Positions 55,288 to 61,907 of a stretch of DNA of 64,000 nucleotides are shown piece by piece. The notes beneath the pieces were generated by a model. It was not told where the DNA came from. It did no database searches and was given only the letters and a program-made list of their open reading frames with translations. Made by a program: the position numbers and the translations under genes. The DNA comes from a virus. The stretch lies in IMG/VR virus record IMGVR_UViG_3300028025_003409, positions 1 to 64,000 of that record, one strand, 5' to 3'. The stretch's first letter is position 1; every line of letters starts with the position of its first letter.

Positions 55288-55379
55288 TAGAATTCACTTT
55301 CCTTATCTAGCATGGTGGGGACTAGTACAATTATAGTGCATAGCACTGACAAAACTAGGATGATAATAGGTAGGCTCAT
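55287..55379 (-). CDS. 30-aa membrane peptide
   Basis: MSLPIIILVLSVLCTIIVLVPTMLDKESEF, TAATG-coupled. Confidence 0.55.
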   Translation of the reverse strand: MSLPIIILVLSVLCTIIVLVPTMLDKESEF

Positions 55380-55555
55380 TAGATACACTCCTCACATGGG
55401 CATTGTGGGAATTCTGCATCTTGCTTAATGCGATTAGCAAGGGCAATAACCTTTTTATAGGTATCGGCAGACGCACCCCTAAAGGATACTACCTTACCCT
55501 CGGCTACTAATTGAGCAGCCTTATTTATTTTTTGTTCTAGTGTTAATGTAGTCAT
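55379..55555 (-). CDS. 58-aa protein
   Basis: GAAAGGTGG SD; MTTLTLEQKINKAA...CPCEECI. Confidence 0.65.
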   Translation of the reverse strand: MTTLTLEQKINKAAQLVAEGKVVSFRGASADTYKKVIALANRIKQDAEFPQCPCEECI

Positions 55556-55703
55556 TTGATGACCACCTTTCTTTTTAATGCGATATCTATTTGATACCTT
55601 TTTCCTTGACCTAGGTTATTTGCTCTTATTTGCTACGCTCACCCGATAATCGGTTTATTTGGTAGGCTCAGAGGCTCACTAGGATTTTTCTTTATTTAAT
55701 TTT

Positions 55704-55801
55704 TCTTACTATGTAAGTCTAGCAAAAAATCTAATAAATATCAACTTACTAGCCAGTATTCTCATATAATGAGACGCTTGGGCTATGTGATTTAGGTCAC
55801 T
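55704..55801 (-). promoter_or_regulatory. leftward promoter module (CRP-like site, TACTGGCTAGTAA, TTGATA...TAGACT)
   Basis: Inverted homologue of 59038-59134. Confidence 0.7.
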
Positions 55802-55886
55802 TATTTGCTAGGCTCATATAACTTTTTGTTATCTTATTTGCTAGGCTCATAACCTTTTATCTCTATTTAATTTTTCTTATACTAGT

Positions 55887-55915
55887 ATAATAACACATCT
55901 ACCCCTAAAAGTCAA
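55887..55915 (-). promoter_or_regulatory. leftward sigmaA promoter
   Basis: TTGACT-17nt-TATTAT. Confidence 0.7.
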
Positions 55916-56007
55916 GTCCTAGCACGGCGTGTCGTGTGTGATATGCGTCACATGGGGACGTGCATGATCTACCCCCTATACAGGTACCCCCTATCTAGGA
56001 CGTGCCC

Positions 56008-56027
56008 TGTGGATAACCTGTGTATAA
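56008..56027. promoter_or_regulatory. tandem DnaA boxes
   Basis: TGTGGATAA (56008) and TGTGTATAA (56019) match TTWTNCACA. Confidence 0.7.
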
Positions 56028-56096
56028 CTATAGTGGTATACATCACATGTGTGCTACATCACAATGTCCAATTTATACCTTTTATACCCTCGTAAA

Positions 56097-56118
56097 TGTC
56101 AGACCCCCCTGTTATACT
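56097..56118 (+). promoter_or_regulatory. PafBC/RecA-NDp-type promoter
   Basis: TGTCAG-N10-TATACT. Confidence 0.7.
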
Positions 56119-56170
56119 TACTAGTATAAAGAAAGTCAGAAAAGGTTTCTGAACTAGAAAGGACAATAAA

Positions 56171-56344
56171 ATGTCAAACAGTATTTTCGGTCAAGGTTTC
56201 GCTAAGGTTAGCGATTACCCTAAAGGTCTAATGAACCTCTGCCCTTGTGGGCAGGTAGTCTTAGCACCTGCTAAGTATCACGCAGGTCAGCCTTGGTGGG
56301 ATAACCCCAACAAGTGTAAAGAATTATTCGAAGGAGTAAAATAA
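56171..56344 (+). CDS. 57-aa protein
   Basis: GAAAGGA SD; MSNSIFGQGF...CPCG...ELFEGVK. Confidence 0.65.
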   Translation: MSNSIFGQGFAKVSDYPKGLMNLCPCGQVVLAPAKYHAGQPWWDNPNKCKELFEGVK

Positions 56345-56473
56345 ATGAACTTAGATGAATACAAGCAAATGATAGAGGCTCAACGCCTCACCTCTTTAGC
56401 AATAGCGTTAGACGCTCTACGCAAATCCAATGCCATAATGGAAAACACTTTCAATTTAGAGGAGAATGAATAA
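56345..56473 (+). CDS. 42-aa protein
   Basis: AAGGAG SD; MNLDEYKQMIEAQR... Confidence 0.6.
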   Translation: MNLDEYKQMIEAQRLTSLAIALDALRKSNAIMENTFNLEENE

Positions 56474-56740
56474 ATGAAAACACTTCAAGAAAAATTAGAC
56501 CTTGCTGCAAAAGCAGTTGAGCCAGTTTTAGCAGAATTGCTAAATGAGGTTGATGAAAAAACCGACTATGAATTAGAACAAGAATTGCAAGAGCAATTTG
56601 ATGAATACATAAATGATTCGCATGACCCAGTAATGATTGCAGGAATTTTATTTTATCCTGCTGACATTCTAAAAGAATGCGACCCAATCGCTTATCGTGT
56701 TTTTCTAAATGATTTTGAATCGTATTTAGAAAACGAATAA
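56474..56740 (+). CDS. acidic hypothetical protein
   Basis: GAGGAG SD; FDEYIND...ILKECDPIAYR. Confidence 0.7.
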   Translation: MKTLQEKLDLAAKAVEPVLAELLNEVDEKTDYELEQELQEQFDEYINDSHDPVMIAGILFYPADILKECDPIAYRVFLNDFESYLENE

Positions 56741-56829
56741 ATAAAAACCAAGATCGCAGAAATAAAACTCTGCGATTTTTTGGGACGTCCCGTGTGATGC
56801 GAATCACATTCAAAATACGGCGTGTCGTC

Positions 56830-56858
56830 TTGACTTTTTGAGATTTCTCTGCTATACT
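56830..56858 (+). promoter_or_regulatory. sigmaA promoter with GTGTC 3 bp upstream of -35
   Basis: TTGACT-17nt-TATACT. Confidence 0.8.
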
Positions 56859-56907
56859 TCTAGTATAAAGAAAATTGAGAAAGGTTCTCAAATTGAAAGG
56901 AGTCCAA

Positions 56908-57012
56908 ATGGACTATAACGAATACTATGATGAAATTTATCTAGAAATCTATGAGGAGTTTGGCGCTGAAAGCGTATCAGACCCAGCCTACGCTGAATCT
57001 CTAAAAAAGTGA
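56908..57012 (+). CDS. 34-aa acidic Tyr-rich peptide
   Basis: GAAAGGAG SD; MDYNEYYDEIYLEIYEEFGAESVSDPAYAESLKK. Confidence 0.65.
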   Translation: MDYNEYYDEIYLEIYEEFGAESVSDPAYAESLKK

Positions 57013-57044
57013 TGTAAATCACACAACGCCTACGGCGTGTCGCC

Positions 57045-57073
57045 TTGACTTTTCAGGGTATGTGTGATAGTCT
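57045..57073 (+). promoter_or_regulatory. sigmaA promoter with GTGTC 3 bp upstream of -35
   Basis: TTGACT-17nt-TAGTCT. Confidence 0.7.
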
Positions 57074-57175
57074 TACTACATAAGAAAAACTAAATAAAGG
57101 ACAAATTGGCTAATGAGCCTAAGCAAATAAATGTGATACAAATCACAGTGAGCCTTAGCGAATAAGTAGCCGAAA

Positions 57176-57197
57176 TGTCAGCCCCCAATGGTAAGAT
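57176..57197 (+). promoter_or_regulatory. PafBC/RecA-NDp-type promoter
   Basis: TGTCAG-N10-TAAGAT. Confidence 0.65.
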
Positions 57198-57230
57198 AGT
57201 CTTATCAAACAAACGAAAGGAAGTCTAAAA

Positions 57231-57428
57231 ATGACTTACACTATAACACTAGAAACCTTTTCAGGTTCTACAAAAAAAATCAACCTTGCCTCTAAGGGTG
57301 CGGTTGCTCAATTCATCTCAACTTATCCAACTCAACTACCTGTTGGCGTTGCTGTAAAAATCGCTTGCGATACCCTCGGAATTAGTGGCACACTTCGTGG
57401 CACTTCTACACTTACAAAATCAAACTAA
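57231..57428 (+). CDS. hypothetical protein
   Basis: GAAAGGA SD. Confidence 0.65.
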   Translation: MTYTITLETFSGSTKKINLASKGAVAQFISTYPTQLPVGVAVKIACDTLGISGTLRGTSTLTKSN

Positions 57429-57447
57429 AGAATAGGAAATAAAATAA

Positions 57448-57654
57448 ATGACTAAAGTAGAACACTCTCTAAAGTTCGTAACCGAGTTCGATGAAACTCA
57501 CCCAGTAGCACTACAAGCACTATCTATCCCTCACTCAGATTTGGTTGCTATGCTTGAAGGAATGCTAAAAGATTTGCTAGTGCCTGCCCTCGGTCCTGTA
57601 CTTGATGAAATAAATGCTCGTGGCACTTATGCAATTCTAAAGGTGGCCGAGTAA
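57448..57654 (+). CDS. hypothetical protein
   Basis: ORF in early module. Confidence 0.65.
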   Translation: MTKVEHSLKFVTEFDETHPVALQALSIPHSDLVAMLEGMLKDLLVPALGPVLDEINARGTYAILKVAE

Positions 57655-57833
57655 TGATGACACGCAAGGACTATGTTGCAACTGCTGAAATTCTTTCATC
57701 ATTCAAAGATTTGATAGGTGATGAATTTACTTTTCACGACTTAGTTGATGAATTTGGTTCAATGTTTGAAGCAGATAATCCAAGATTTGATTCAACTAAA
57801 TTTTTTGAAGCGTGTAACAAAGACACTTACTAA
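57654..57833 (+). CDS. 59-aa phage protein with MTRKDY...DNPRFD..KF..AC motif
   Basis: Manual translation; TAATG-coupled; motif recognised as common among small phage proteins. Confidence 0.7.
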   Translation: MMTRKDYVATAEILSSFKDLIGDEFTFHDLVDEFGSMFEADNPRFDSTKFFEACNKDTY

Positions 57834-58006
57834 ATAAAAAAATCCTGAGCAAGATTTAAAACTGCTCCACACTCAAAATTTTGGGACGTCGCGTTCGGGC
57901 GTGTCGTCCACATGACGCAGATCACATTCAGAATTGAGCGTGAGTTATCCACATGACCTACATCACATTTCAAAATGTCCGATTTGTGGCATTACTGGTC
58001 AGTAGA

Positions 58007-58028
58007 TGTCAGACCCCCCTGCTATACT
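58007..58028 (+). promoter_or_regulatory. PafBC/RecA-NDp-type promoter
   Basis: TGTCAG-N10-TATACT, near-identical to 56097. Confidence 0.7.
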
Positions 58029-58079
58029 TACTAGTATAAAGAAAGTCAATCAAGGTGATTGAACTAGAAAGGAATTCAA

Positions 58080-58256
58080 ATGAATTCAACAATTATCAAG
58101 TGTGTAGAACACACACCCTTCAAGTCTGCTATCTCAGAGGTTGCAGATACACAATTTACTTTTTGTGAAATTTGTGAAAATAACATTGAGCGTTGGTATA
58201 ACGATACCGACCCTGAGCGTCTACCAATGTGGACAGATTGGAAGGTATCTAAATGA
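58080..58256 (+). CDS. 58-aa protein
   Basis: GAAAGGA SD; MNSTIIKCVEH...CEICE...WKVSK. Confidence 0.65.
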   Translation: MNSTIIKCVEHTPFKSAISEVADTQFTFCEICENNIERWYNDTDPERLPMWTDWKVSK

Positions 58257-58363
58257 TAGACTTCGTAAAACAATTAGAATTAGAAAACTATCTTGCAGAC
58301 GAGCAAGTAGACCCACTAGCAAAAATGCTAGATGAACTAATAAAGAAAGGAGAATACAAATGA
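58253..58363 (+). CDS. 36-aa protein
   Basis: ATGA-coupled; MIDFVKQLELENYLADEQVDPLAKMLDELIKKGEYK. Confidence 0.55.
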   Translation: MIDFVKQLELENYLADEQVDPLAKMLDELIKKGEYK

Positions 58364-58596
58364 GTCTATCCCTTGCTAATAAAATCGCAAAAGATAAATT
58401 CTTTCTGCCCCCTTCAAAATACATAAACCACAAAGTCGTGGAGATTGTATCTTTAAATGAGGATAGCGGTATCGCTACTGTAATCCTAGAAAAATACACA
58501 ATAGGCAGAAATGCTAATGTGTATAAAAATAATAATGTGTTCACAATTGAATTGCCTTATTCCGAATTTCAAAATCTAAATGGTTGGAGTGAATAA
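58360..58596 (+). CDS. hypothetical protein
   Basis: AAGGAG SD. Confidence 0.65.
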   Translation: MSLSLANKIAKDKFFLPPSKYINHKVVEIVSLNEDSGIATVILEKYTIGRNANVYKNNNVFTIELPYSEFQNLNGWSE

Positions 58597-58761
58597 ATGA
58601 GTACCTATGTACCAATTAAATCTGTATGTGGTGCAGTAACTACCACAATTGACATCTATGACATTGAGTTAAATCCTCACGGAGTAATCTGTTGCGATAA
58701 CTGCAAGTCAATCATTCTATGCCGTAAGGCTTGGGATTTTCTATACAAGGAGAATAAGTAA
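58597..58761 (+). CDS. 54-aa Cys-rich protein
   Basis: MSTYVPIKSVCG...CCDNCK...CRKAW. Confidence 0.6.
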   Translation: MSTYVPIKSVCGAVTTTIDIYDIELNPHGVICCDNCKSIILCRKAWDFLYKENK

Positions 58762-58901
58762 TGCCACTATTTGAATTTACAACATTTATAAATGTTGAAG
58801 CAGAAGACTATGACTCTGCTATTGCTATGTTTGACTCTAATTTAGAGTATGGTGGAATTCGCAGAAGCGATGTTTATGTCGCAGAAATTGAGGAAAAGTA
58901 A
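58761..58901 (+). CDS. 46-aa acidic protein
   Basis: AAGGAG SD; MPLFEFTTFINVEAEDYDSA... Confidence 0.6.
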   Translation: MPLFEFTTFINVEAEDYDSAIAMFDSNLEYGGIRRSDVYVAEIEEK

Positions 58902-58902
58902 A

Positions 58903-59001
58903 ATGAGTTTTTATCAAACCTTTTTTGAAAGTGGCAACGCATTGTTTTGGTTTTCAATGATCTGCTTAGCAAGTGGATTTTATTTATTTGTAAAAGAGTA
59001 G
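58903..59001 (+). CDS. 32-aa membrane peptide
   Basis: GAGGA SD; MSFYQTFFESGNALFWFSMICLASGFYLFVKE. Confidence 0.55.
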   Translation: MSFYQTFFESGNALFWFSMICLASGFYLFVKE

Positions 59002-59037
59002 AAAAACGGGACGTCGCGTTCGGGCGTGTCGCCACGC

Positions 59038-59134
59038 TGTGAGATTTATCACATGGCTTGAGCGTCTCAGTATTTGGACTTACTGGCTAGTAACTTGATA
59101 ATTTGTGAGTAATAGGCTAGACTTACATAGTAAG
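59038..59134 (+). promoter_or_regulatory. promoter module (CRP site, TTACT-N4-AGTAA palindrome, TTGATA-17nt-TAGACT)
   Basis: Seen directly; homologous to 55704-55801. Confidence 0.7.
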
Positions 59135-59185
59135 TAAAAATAAATAAAAGAAAGTCTATCCCACTACGGCGTGTCTAACCGAAAA

Positions 59186-59207
59186 TGTCAGACCCCTATG
59201 GTAGGAT
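59186..59207 (+). promoter_or_regulatory. PafBC/RecA-NDp-type promoter
   Basis: TGTCAG-N10-TAGGAT. Confidence 0.65.
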
Positions 59208-59239
59208 AGAATTATCAACAAAAAGAAAGAGGTTGGCAA

Positions 59240-59446
59240 ATGTCAGCAAATGTCTATACAATAGAACACCTACTTGTAGGAACACAATACCGCTCACGAA
59301 CACTATCGGGAGAAATTATCTCAGCAGAGAAACACCCTAACGCAGTTTGGTATCAGGGTTGCGAAAGTTATCTAGTGGAAGTGCGCCCTAGTAATTTTGG
59401 AAAAGTCGTATGTCGCACAGTAGCAGTAAAGGTAGAAAATAACTAA
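59240..59446 (+). CDS. hypothetical protein
   Basis: AGAGGT SD. Confidence 0.65.
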   Translation: MSANVYTIEHLLVGTQYRSRTLSGEIISAEKHPNAVWYQGCESYLVEVRPSNFGKVVCRTVAVKVENN

Positions 59447-61006: not shown

Positions 61007-61183
61007 ATGACCTACGAAAACGATGAAATGCTAGATGAATACTATGCAACTGTATGCCCCTCATGCAAAGAAAATGCGGTAGACGCATATGAAGATAAAT
61101 GCACTCATTGCTTACTAGAAGAAATGTCTGTCCACTATAACGAAGACATTGCTCTAGAAATGAGTCTTGGCCTTGACTACTGA
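61007..61183 (+). CDS. 58-aa acidic CxxC...CxxC protein
   Basis: AAGGAG SD; CPSC...CTHC. Confidence 0.65.
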   Translation: MTYENDEMLDEYYATVCPSCKENAVDAYEDKCTHCLLEEMSVHYNEDIALEMSLGLDY

Positions 61184-61907
61184 TACACTTAAACTTAAAC
61201 GCTCTAATGATAGAAAGGTGGCTAATCTTGTCACAAAAAATGGAAAGCAAGCCGCAATCGCAAATACCTTTGGACTACCTGCTGGAAAGGCTTTCTCGTG
61301 CCCTGGTGCCACTAGCGTATGTGAAAGCGTGTGCTATGCAGGAAAACTCGAAAAACTCTTCAAAGGCGTAAAGGCTAACCTCTTACACAATTGGACCTTA
61401 CTTAAGGACGCCGATCAATTAACTATGGAGACACTGTTAACTGAAATGATTAACGATTTCCGTGCAGACTGTGTAAAGAAAGACGCCCCTATGCTATTCC
61501 GTATCCATTGGGACGGAGATTTCTTTAATGATATATACACTCATGCATGGAAGAATGTAATCAATAACAATCCTGATATTCAATTCTGGGTATATACCCG
61601 TGTTAAGTCTGCTGCACTTATACTTAAGGATGTATCTAATCTATCATTGTACTTCTCTGCAGATAGTGAGAATGTAAAAACCGCCGTTGACTTAAAAATT
61701 AATAGTGGCGTACGTATGGCATACCTTGCTAAGAACTTTGCTATTGGTCAAGCCGATGTAAAAGAAATGATAGGCAGACCTGCTGCTAAGTGTCCTGAGA
61801 ATAATAAACAAATTCCACTTATCTCAACTAACGGTAGCGCTTGCGTTTCATGCTCACTTTGTGTATACTCTAAGAGTGATATCATATTCTCTGCGAGTAA
61901 AAAATAA
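61167..61907 (+). CDS. GP88-family protein (radical-SAM-related, Cys-rich)
   Basis: FGLPAG..SCPGATSVCESVCYA, FRIHWDGDFF, FWVYTR, CP...CVSCSLC. Confidence 0.75.
   Translation: MALTTDTLKLKRSNDRKVANLVTKNGKQAAIANTFGLPAGKAFSCPGATSVCESVCYAGKLEKLFKGVKANLLHNWTLLKDADQLTMETLLTEMINDFRADCVKKDAPMLFRIHWDGDFFNDIYTHAWKNVINNNPDIQFWVYTRVKSAALILKDVSNLSLYFSADSENVKTAVDLKINSGVRMAYLAKNFAIGQADVKEMIGRPAAKCPENNKQIPLISTNGSACVSCSLCVYSKSDIIFSASKK

Follow-up and report, generated by a model that had tools for sequence, protein, structure and literature searches.

What are the short hairpins that stand directly before the ribosome-binding sites of several very small genes in an uncultured virus, and at which level would they act? 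The question arises from the first 64,000 nucleotides (nt) of the IMG/VR virus record IMGVR_UViG_3300028025_003409 (called the window below), a 109,057-bp record flagged for direct terminal repeats, in which a block of very small genes occupies the plus strand from about 56 kb on. A first-pass annotation, made from the letters of the window, had described there three leader hairpins with differing but perfectly paired stems, an invariant AAGGT loop and a Shine-Dalgarno (SD) sequence just downstream, and had proposed for them a binding site for a translational regulator, an antiterminator or a stability element. The comparison with related phages presented here argues that the hairpin is a real structure of the sense-strand RNA and points to a ribosome-binding region with two hairpins, of which this one (hairpin A) would be the upstream half. 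That hairpin A is a cis-acting RNA element affecting translation or the fate of the messenger RNA (mRNA) at all appears probable. That it is, more precisely, a leader module acting at the level of translation, with a putative factor that reads its conserved loop, is the interpretation that we tentatively favour from its anatomy.

Re-reading the sequence found all three hairpins where they had been described, each flanked by an exact TAGTATAAAGAAA block and by GAAAGGA. Read from the sequence and from folding, they are:

56136-56152, plus strand: hairpin A of leader 1 (A1), TCAGAA-AAGGT-TTCTGA, with 7 bp and an AGG triloop if the A and U of the loop close
56875-56891, plus strand: hairpin A of leader 2 (A2), TTGAGA-AAGGT-TCTCAA
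58046-58062, plus strand: hairpin A of leader 3 (A3), TCAATC-AAGGT-GATTGA

The flanking block occurs three times in the whole genome, always at a hairpin. AAGGT itself is found at 288 sites genome-wide on both strands, and a perfect flanking stem of at least 4 bp exists at these three only, with 6 bp in each case, where chance would provide about 0.07 stems of that length (288 x 4^-6). The pattern TATAAAGAAA-N6-9-AAGGT likewise has three matches against 0.01 expected, and scanning the whole of IMG/VR with it returned, among the matches listed, only single chance matches. Comparison of the three copies reveals double changes at five of the six stem pairs. In the predicted minimum-energy fold the first A and the last U of the loop also pair, so that the stem grows to 7 bp and an AGG triloop is left, and the leaders adopt this fold at a predicted -6 to -12 kcal/mol. 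The stems themselves, AU-rich and weak at about -4 to -8 kcal/mol, have no U tract and end 4-5 nt 5' of the SD sequence.

More than 500 related contigs of IMG/VR, reached through the head protease and a PF17338 gp88-like protein (61167-61907), were searched with a covariance model built from the three leaders, a check that the first-pass annotation had recommended. With a cut-off on the expectation value (E) of 1e-5 or below, the model recovered 54 matches representing 32 distinct sequences, in which 217 of 217 pair cells hold standard pairs and five of the seven pairs change on both sides (55 compensatory cells). Neither the pairing nor the covariation score was equalled in any of 500 shuffles, a shift of the 3' partner by one to three columns lowers pairing to 27-60%, and the same helix was predicted independently by RNAalifold. 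The hairpin always lies in the orientation of the gene, and some of its variants hold G-U pairs on the sense strand (GGTTGAGA/TCTTAACT, GGTTAA/TTAGCC), internal G-U pairs and A-C mismatches being too few for their counts to decide between sense and antisense. Because of the compensatory changes, the gene orientation and the G-U pairs, we regard the hairpin as a real structure of the sense-strand RNA. The compensatory change on which the annotation had built its case, and which could have vanished in a larger alignment, is strongly borne out there.

A separate scan for any pentaloop beginning with AA before an SD sequence returned stem-loop combinations of 26 kinds: AAGGU stands on 13 distinct stems, AAAGU on six, AAAUA on three and loops of the AACU type on two, so that the same leader recurs with at least 13 stems under AAGGU. 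The invariance ascribed to the loop holds for the three copies and their near relatives; it has to be softened for the wider family, where AAGGU predominates strongly over AAAGU, AAAUA and AAACU. The Rfam search that had also been recommended supplies no known family: at the gathering score Rfam 15 has no match in the window, and at lax thresholds the region 55500-59400 yields three chance-level matches (E 1.5-3), none of them on the hairpins. Looking up the leader by sequence likewise brought up no look-alike. Judged by these comparisons, hairpin A would be a previously undescribed element of the phage leader hairpin or translational operator kind.

Could the pairing nevertheless be the by-product of an element that works as DNA, such as an operator, a cruciform, a hairpin promoter of the N4 type, an antisense promoter or a recombination linker like the PeSL elements? 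The hairpin belongs to a 64-bp promoter-leader cassette that is repeated with 86% mean column identity, and in relatives the same cassette and stem are found before different gene families, which suggests shuffling. A 7-bp stem with a 3-nt loop resembles the promoters of the N4 virion polymerase, and the bottom strand of copy 2 reads TTGAGA, 18 nt, TATACT. Against such an origin, wholly different half-sites surround a conserved asymmetric centre from copy to copy, the reverse of a dimeric operator, and every G-U pair would become an A-C mismatch on the opposite strand. The antisense -35 box is present for the TTGAGA stem only, and the corresponding promoter (56891-56862, minus strand, facing the sense promoter) was rejected as a candidate limited to copy 2. 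Neither a T7-like RNA polymerase nor a sigma factor was found in the phage genome; PF04542 has no match there, nor has PF00940, for which the control was silent and the search accordingly weak. No virion RNA polymerase was recognised among the largest open reading frames (ORFs): the one of 3183 aa matches tape-measure families, the next largest (1445 aa) matches a minor tail protein family, that of 1238 aa has no Pfam match, that of 1023 aa is DNA polymerase III alpha, and other large ORFs are RecA, a carbamoyltransferase and similar proteins.

The likeness to PeSL deserves a separate comparison. In T4-type phages these elements repeat a strong host-type early promoter, a stem-loop and an SD sequence before small orphan early genes (PMC2839356). 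The cassettes of the present phages also stand before different genes in related genomes, and they too repeat a sigma70-like early promoter with an SD sequence before orphan genes. The PeSL stem-loops, however, are GC-rich, work as terminators and precede the transcription start, being placed within the promoter or upstream of it (PMC2839356). In the cassettes studied here the hairpin, AU-rich and with no U tract, comes 17 nt 3' of the -10 box and would be inside its own transcript. We consider it highly improbable that the pairing stems from a DNA-level element. As a separate observation, the same stem was never seen twice within one genome where 2.5 cases were expected (P about 0.055; 19 distinct multi-hairpin stem sets from 31 sources with at least two hairpins), and this hints, weakly, that a genome keeps its repeated cassettes unlike one another.

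The transcription signals, ribosome-binding sites and genes of the three leaders are arranged as follows:

56097-56118, plus strand: promoter of leader 1, TGTCAG (56097-56102), a 10-nt spacer ending in the TG of an extended -10 box, and TATACT (56113-56118)
56124-56135, plus strand: predicted start of leader 1 (56124-56126, a 5' end deduced rather than mapped) and purine-rich single-stranded 5' segment (A)UAAAGAAAG
56157-56163, plus strand: SD sequence of leader 1, GAAAGGA, in the single-stranded linker between two hairpins
56171-56344, plus strand: gene of leader 1, 57 aa, with its AUG at 56171-56173
56830-56858, plus strand: promoter of leader 2, TTGACT, 17 nt, TGcTATACT, with 10 of 12 consensus matches and the TG present
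56895-56902, plus strand: SD sequence of leader 2, GAAAGGAG
56908-57012, plus strand: gene of leader 2, 34 aa
58007-58028, plus strand: promoter of leader 3, TGTCAG, a 10-nt spacer ending in the TG of an extended -10 box, and TATACT (58023-58028)
58067-58073, plus strand: SD sequence of leader 3, GAAAGGA
58080-58256, plus strand: gene of leader 3, 58 aa, Cys/His-rich

An extended -10 box (TGnTATACT) stands 17 nt upstream of each hairpin, and the 17 nt between TTGACT and the extended -10 box of copy 2 are the ideal spacing. In apparently leaderless genes of the same genome, the A of the ATG follows the -10 box by 6-8 nt (mode 7), and because of this spacing transcription is predicted to start at 56124-56126, 56864-56865 and 58034-58036, about 10 nt 5' of the stems. 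The hairpins would then be transcribed, rather than preceding the start, the situation that the first-pass annotation had named as fatal to its proposal. The unpaired part of the leader is 81% purine with only 5% C. Pfam offers no match for the genes downstream, which encode 34-58 aa.

A fourth member of the family, on the minus strand, is the most informative as to what the element accompanies:

55582-55598, minus strand: fourth hairpin A, GGUAUC-AAAUA-GAUAUC, 11 nt 5' of its SD sequence
55379-55555, minus strand: gene served by this hairpin
55744-55716, minus strand: promoter of its leader, more than 100 nt upstream of the hairpin

At the orthologous positions in relatives the loops are AAGGU or AAAGU on covarying stems, and the gap between hairpin and SD sequence is 3-15 nt in all members. 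Since the promoter of the leftward member is more than 100 nt away and its SD sequence 11 nt away, the element is, on this positional evidence, one that follows the ribosome-binding site and not the promoter.

The same position speaks against a boxB-like antitermination site, at which an early phage protein bound to the nascent hairpin would let the host polymerase pass the terminators at the ends of the early modules. There is a likeness to nut sites of the lambda type, where more than one early operon has an RNA hairpin near its promoter, topped by a purine-rich pentaloop: here too a purine-rich pentaloop is carried on a short stem, several copies come just after early promoters, and a terminator-like hairpin (56753-56776) closes the first module. 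Each of the modules nevertheless starts from a promoter of its own, and an SD sequence invariably adjoins the element. Instead of a GNRA-like pentaloop starting with G on a conserved stem, as in boxB (GAAAA or GAAGA in lambda), the loops found are AAGGU, AAAGU, AAAUA and AAACU, all starting with A, and the stems are AU-rich and vary between copies. No boxA-like partner was recognised, no actinobacterial boxA model having been searched; the conserved block upstream of the hairpin reads AUAAAGAAA(G). In the early region from 55 to 64 kb, no ORF of at least 30 aa has the Arg/Lys-rich window of an N-like protein, a divergent binder being possible. With no N-like peptide, a promoter for each module and a loop unlike boxB, the antiterminator among the functions first proposed seems to us very unlikely.

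Folding the leaders into the coding region uncovered a second hairpin, in which the spacer between the SD sequence and the AUG pairs with the (A)UG and codons 2-3. Its occurrences in the window include:

56162-56175, plus strand: start-codon hairpin of leader 1, GACA-AUAAAA-UGUC, with the UG of the AUG in the stem
56901-56914, plus strand: start-codon hairpin of leader 2, AGUCC-AAAU-GGACU
58072-58087, plus strand: start-codon hairpin of leader 3, GAAUUC-AAAU-GAAUUC
55548-55566, minus strand: start-codon hairpin for the leftward gene, GUGGUCAU-CAA-AUGACUAC, whose 8-bp stem takes in the entire AUG
57221-57237, plus strand: start-codon hairpin of the gene at 57231, without an upstream hairpin

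Folding of the whole leaders gives z-scores of -1.6 to -3.6 for the four leaders of the window, with -2.5 for leader 2 and -3.6 for the leftward one. Among the related loci, a start-codon hairpin of at least 6 bp is present at 28% of promoter-proximal starts, against 3.5% after shuffling of the first codons, and its stems covary within gene families (GAAUUCA/UGAAUUC, GAAAACA/UGUUUUC, GAGAACA/UGUUCUC, GUGGUCA/UGACUAC). G-U pairs make up 15% of its pairs, a clearer sense-strand signal than that of hairpin A, and its loops vary freely at the same evolutionary depth (AAA, AAAU, UAAAAU, UCAAAU and others). Because the second hairpin pairs the SD-AUG spacer with the start codons, the SD core GAAAGG is left single-stranded in a 9-10-nt purine linker between two helices. 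Leaders that have a start-codon hairpin carry hairpin A more often than others, with an odds ratio of 3.1 from data that are not independent. The start-codon hairpin is far commoner and also occurs without hairpin A; the two are separable modules.

This arrangement leads us to propose that the hairpins are sense-strand stem-loops in the 5' untranslated leaders of early operons, which would be transcribed by the host RNA polymerase. From its 5' end, such a leader would comprise a purine-rich tail of about 10 nt, hairpin A (6-8 bp, AAGGU), the 9-10-nt purine linker with the SD sequence, and the second hairpin. The region a few nucleotides 5' of an SD sequence lies within the footprint of the 30S ribosomal subunit. 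Placed at the 5' edge of that footprint, hairpin A may act on translation initiation of the first gene of the operon, its conserved loop contacting a reader that would set whether or when the ribosome engages the SD sequence with the start codon locked in the neighbouring hairpin. Candidate readers are a dedicated phage or host RNA-binding protein, the 30S platform or the 3' tail of 16S ribosomal RNA. A role in translation is favoured because the element always stands before an SD sequence, in one case far from the promoter, and is paired with a start-codon hairpin, and also because it is restricted to certain early genes and has a weak stem without U tract. The loop in turn is probably under constraint, since AAGGU is kept over 13 stems while the neighbouring start-codon loop drifts. 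The translational regulator is thus the option of the first-pass annotation that the anatomy favours.

Phage translational operators such as those of T4 gp43, the RegA targets, the replicase operator of MS2 and Qbeta, and Mu Com offer the closest parallel, each being a short hairpin with a constrained loop at a ribosome-binding site, a description that hairpin A also fits through its short gap to the SD sequence and its AAGGU over covarying stems. In the RegA regulon, several early messages are likewise under one tag, and in the MS2 operator the AUG lies in the 3' arm of the hairpin, a position that corresponds here to the second hairpin. The leaders differ from these operators in that no cognate protein was found, the SD sequence and the AUG are left free by hairpin A, the loop classes are mixed, there is no sequence similarity, and the host would be an actinobacterium.

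Several points weigh against a translation-level module with a loop reader. All that is said here about function is drawn from anatomy, and the transcription start is predicted, not measured. Hairpin A occludes neither the SD sequence nor the AUG. A search over 80 loci for an early ORF family that tracks the hairpin gave no clean association, with only partial and phylogenetically confounded signals, and no arginine-rich peptide was found in the early region from 55 to 64 kb. A complementary ACCUU loop, sought elsewhere in the genome as a kissing partner, turned up only as the trivial antisense strand. In 22 of 31 sources a single genome combines different loops. Orthologous genes carry hairpin A, GAGA-AAC-UCUC, NGG-UAAAGAAAU-CCN or no hairpin, an interchangeability that would suit some general structural role better than one specific binder.

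Two more specific mechanisms were considered for the hairpin and set aside. A switch in which the 3' arm pairs with the SD sequence is feasible for UUUCU/AGAAA in copy 1 only and is impossible for GAUUGA in copy 3. A loop that mimics an SD sequence was suggested by AAGG, which is SD-like, and by the TTGAGA and ATCAAGA stems, whose arm and loop together read AGAAAGGU, like true SD sequences; with the variant loops AAAGU, AAAUA and AAACU not SD-like, it was retained only as a sub-option.

The interchangeability of the classes, and the mixing of loops within genomes, also favours the main rival, the stability element of the first-pass annotation. As a factor-independent stabiliser, the stem-loop would block RNase J in its 5'-to-3' course or a 5'-end-dependent RNase E, directly or after an upstream cleavage, so that the SD sequence and gene behind it would persist early in the infection, and the conservation of the loop would be secondary. 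Precedents exist in E. coli ompA and in Bacillus (SP82, aprE, cryIIIA Stab-SD), whose stem-loops at the 5' end and SD-like stabilisers are well established and where likewise a stem-loop, an AAGG purine motif or both stand near the 5' end. In addition, three of the four copies in the window are promoter-proximal, and the purine-rich, C-poor make-up of the unpaired leader suggests, without being decisive, selection on leader RNA composition. The known 5' stabilisers must, however, sit within a few nucleotides of the end, whereas about 10 nt separate the predicted start from the stem, and over 100 nt do so in the leftward leader, a distance that processing could shorten by creating a new end. 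The stems are weak for such a purpose, the loops AAAGU, AAAUA and AAACU are not SD-like, and stability as such leaves unexplained why AAGGU is held over so many stems while the adjacent loop drifts.

The distribution of the hairpin bears on stabilisation as well. Within one gene family the stem, the class of hairpin and even the presence of a hairpin vary among relatives. Hairpin A precedes the first gene of a few early modules, namely the 57-aa MSNSIFG, the 34-aa MDYNEYY and the 56-58-aa Cys/His-rich families and a few others. Many other early leaders of the same genomes lack hairpin A, which tells against a general stabiliser: in other promoter-proximal early families it was found in 0/86, 0/79, 0/63, 0/42 and 0/25 distinct leaders. 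We regard a purely stabilising function as unlikely on balance.

Two other hairpin classes occupy the same position in relatives. The first has a GC stem of 3-5 bp and an invariant 9-nt loop, UAAAGAAAU, on a covarying stem (GCGG/CCGC, GAGG/CCUC, GUGG/CCAC); the second is GUGAGA-AAC-UCUCAC. Examples of these classes are found in the related loci at:

L243, 2787-2853: other hairpin class
L253, 4122-4188: other hairpin class
L287, 4117-4184: other hairpin class
L247, 1439-1500: other hairpin class

Hairpins with AAGGU or AAAGU loops and those with the 9-nt loop tend to exclude each other, with 27 loci having only the former, 27 only the latter and 8 both.

Which host would read these leaders can be approached from the rest of the genome. 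The 109,057-bp sequence ends in an exact 102-bp repeat, and the phage is siphovirus-like, with the 3183-aa tape measure protein, a head protease and a major-capsid-like protein on the minus strand. Beyond the window, a WhiB gene is encoded at 78118-78291 (minus strand), and WhiB serves as a marker of actinobacteriophages (PMC10914622). The nearest phages in GenBank are distant siphoviruses of Streptomyces, Vibrio and Rhodococcus, with about 54% identity on the protease, and megablast of the region against GenBank phages returned nothing. Because no phage RNA polymerase or sigma factor was found, WhiB is encoded and these are the nearest relatives, the host is most likely a low-GC actinobacterium, and the phage is most likely transcribed by the host polymerase. 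Many structural and late genes have leaderless-looking mRNAs, with TGnTATAAT 6-8 nt 5' of the ATG and no SD sequence, which fits an actinobacterial host. Among their -10 boxes are the following:

49635, minus strand: -10 box of an apparently leaderless gene
44732, minus strand: -10 box of an apparently leaderless gene
44064, minus strand: -10 box of an apparently leaderless gene
37755, minus strand: -10 box of an apparently leaderless gene
22692, minus strand: -10 box of an apparently leaderless gene
4952, minus strand: -10 box of an apparently leaderless gene

Also beyond the window lie five tRNA genes (Asp, Met, Asn, Glu, Arg) at 65107-65181 and 73460-73765 and the RecA and DNA polymerase III alpha genes at 104883-108954 (minus strand).

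The surroundings of the leaders contain further repeated elements. Promoters of the form TGTCAG-N10-TAnnnT in the list for the region 55925-59030 stand at 56097, 57176 (a variant), 58007 and 59187, and the block TAT(A/C)AA at position +1 is conserved. On the plus strand, an inverted repeat joins the -10 box to the first transcribed bases (TATACT-N3/4-AGTATA at 56113-56129 and 58023-58039; TGGTAAGA-TAG-TCTTATCA; also at 57189-57207). As a structure this palindrome is probably not selected, for the AGTATA partner is unchanged in relatives with TAGACT or TACACT. The spacers between modules in 55925-59030 hold GGGACGTC, (C)GGCGTGTCG beside -35 boxes, and TGTGA-N6-TCACA palindromes. A second promoter family, with the leader TA(T)AAGAAAAATTAAATAAAG and without the hairpin, is found at 55895 and 55724 on the minus strand and at 57065 and 59096 on the plus strand. 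Downstream of promoters of this family lie repeated copies of (A/G)TGAGCCT(A)AGCAAATAA, at 55610-55880 on both strands and at 57100-57175 on the plus strand, which may be small non-coding transcripts.

Beyond the single leaders, a wider proposal is possible, though we find it doubtful at present: a large clade of freshwater actinophages encoding whiB may gate the translation of a subset of its early genes through a bipartite structured ribosome-binding site, in which two covarying hairpins flank the SD sequence and the second locks the start codon, with AAGGU as the tag for a dedicated RNA-binding regulator. We know of no such regulon in actinobacteriophages. If true, the bipartite gate would be a post-transcriptional early-gene regulon comparable to those of T4 RegA/RegB or Mu Com. 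Independently of this proposal, hairpin A would, if its role holds, represent a new cis-regulatory RNA motif with unusually clean covariation, common to many of the hundreds of related uncultured contigs, which most likely infect low-GC freshwater Actinobacteria, hosts that are difficult to cultivate. The covariation of codons 2-3 with the spacer in the 5' untranslated region would, in addition, constrain the evolution of the N-terminus of the early proteins.

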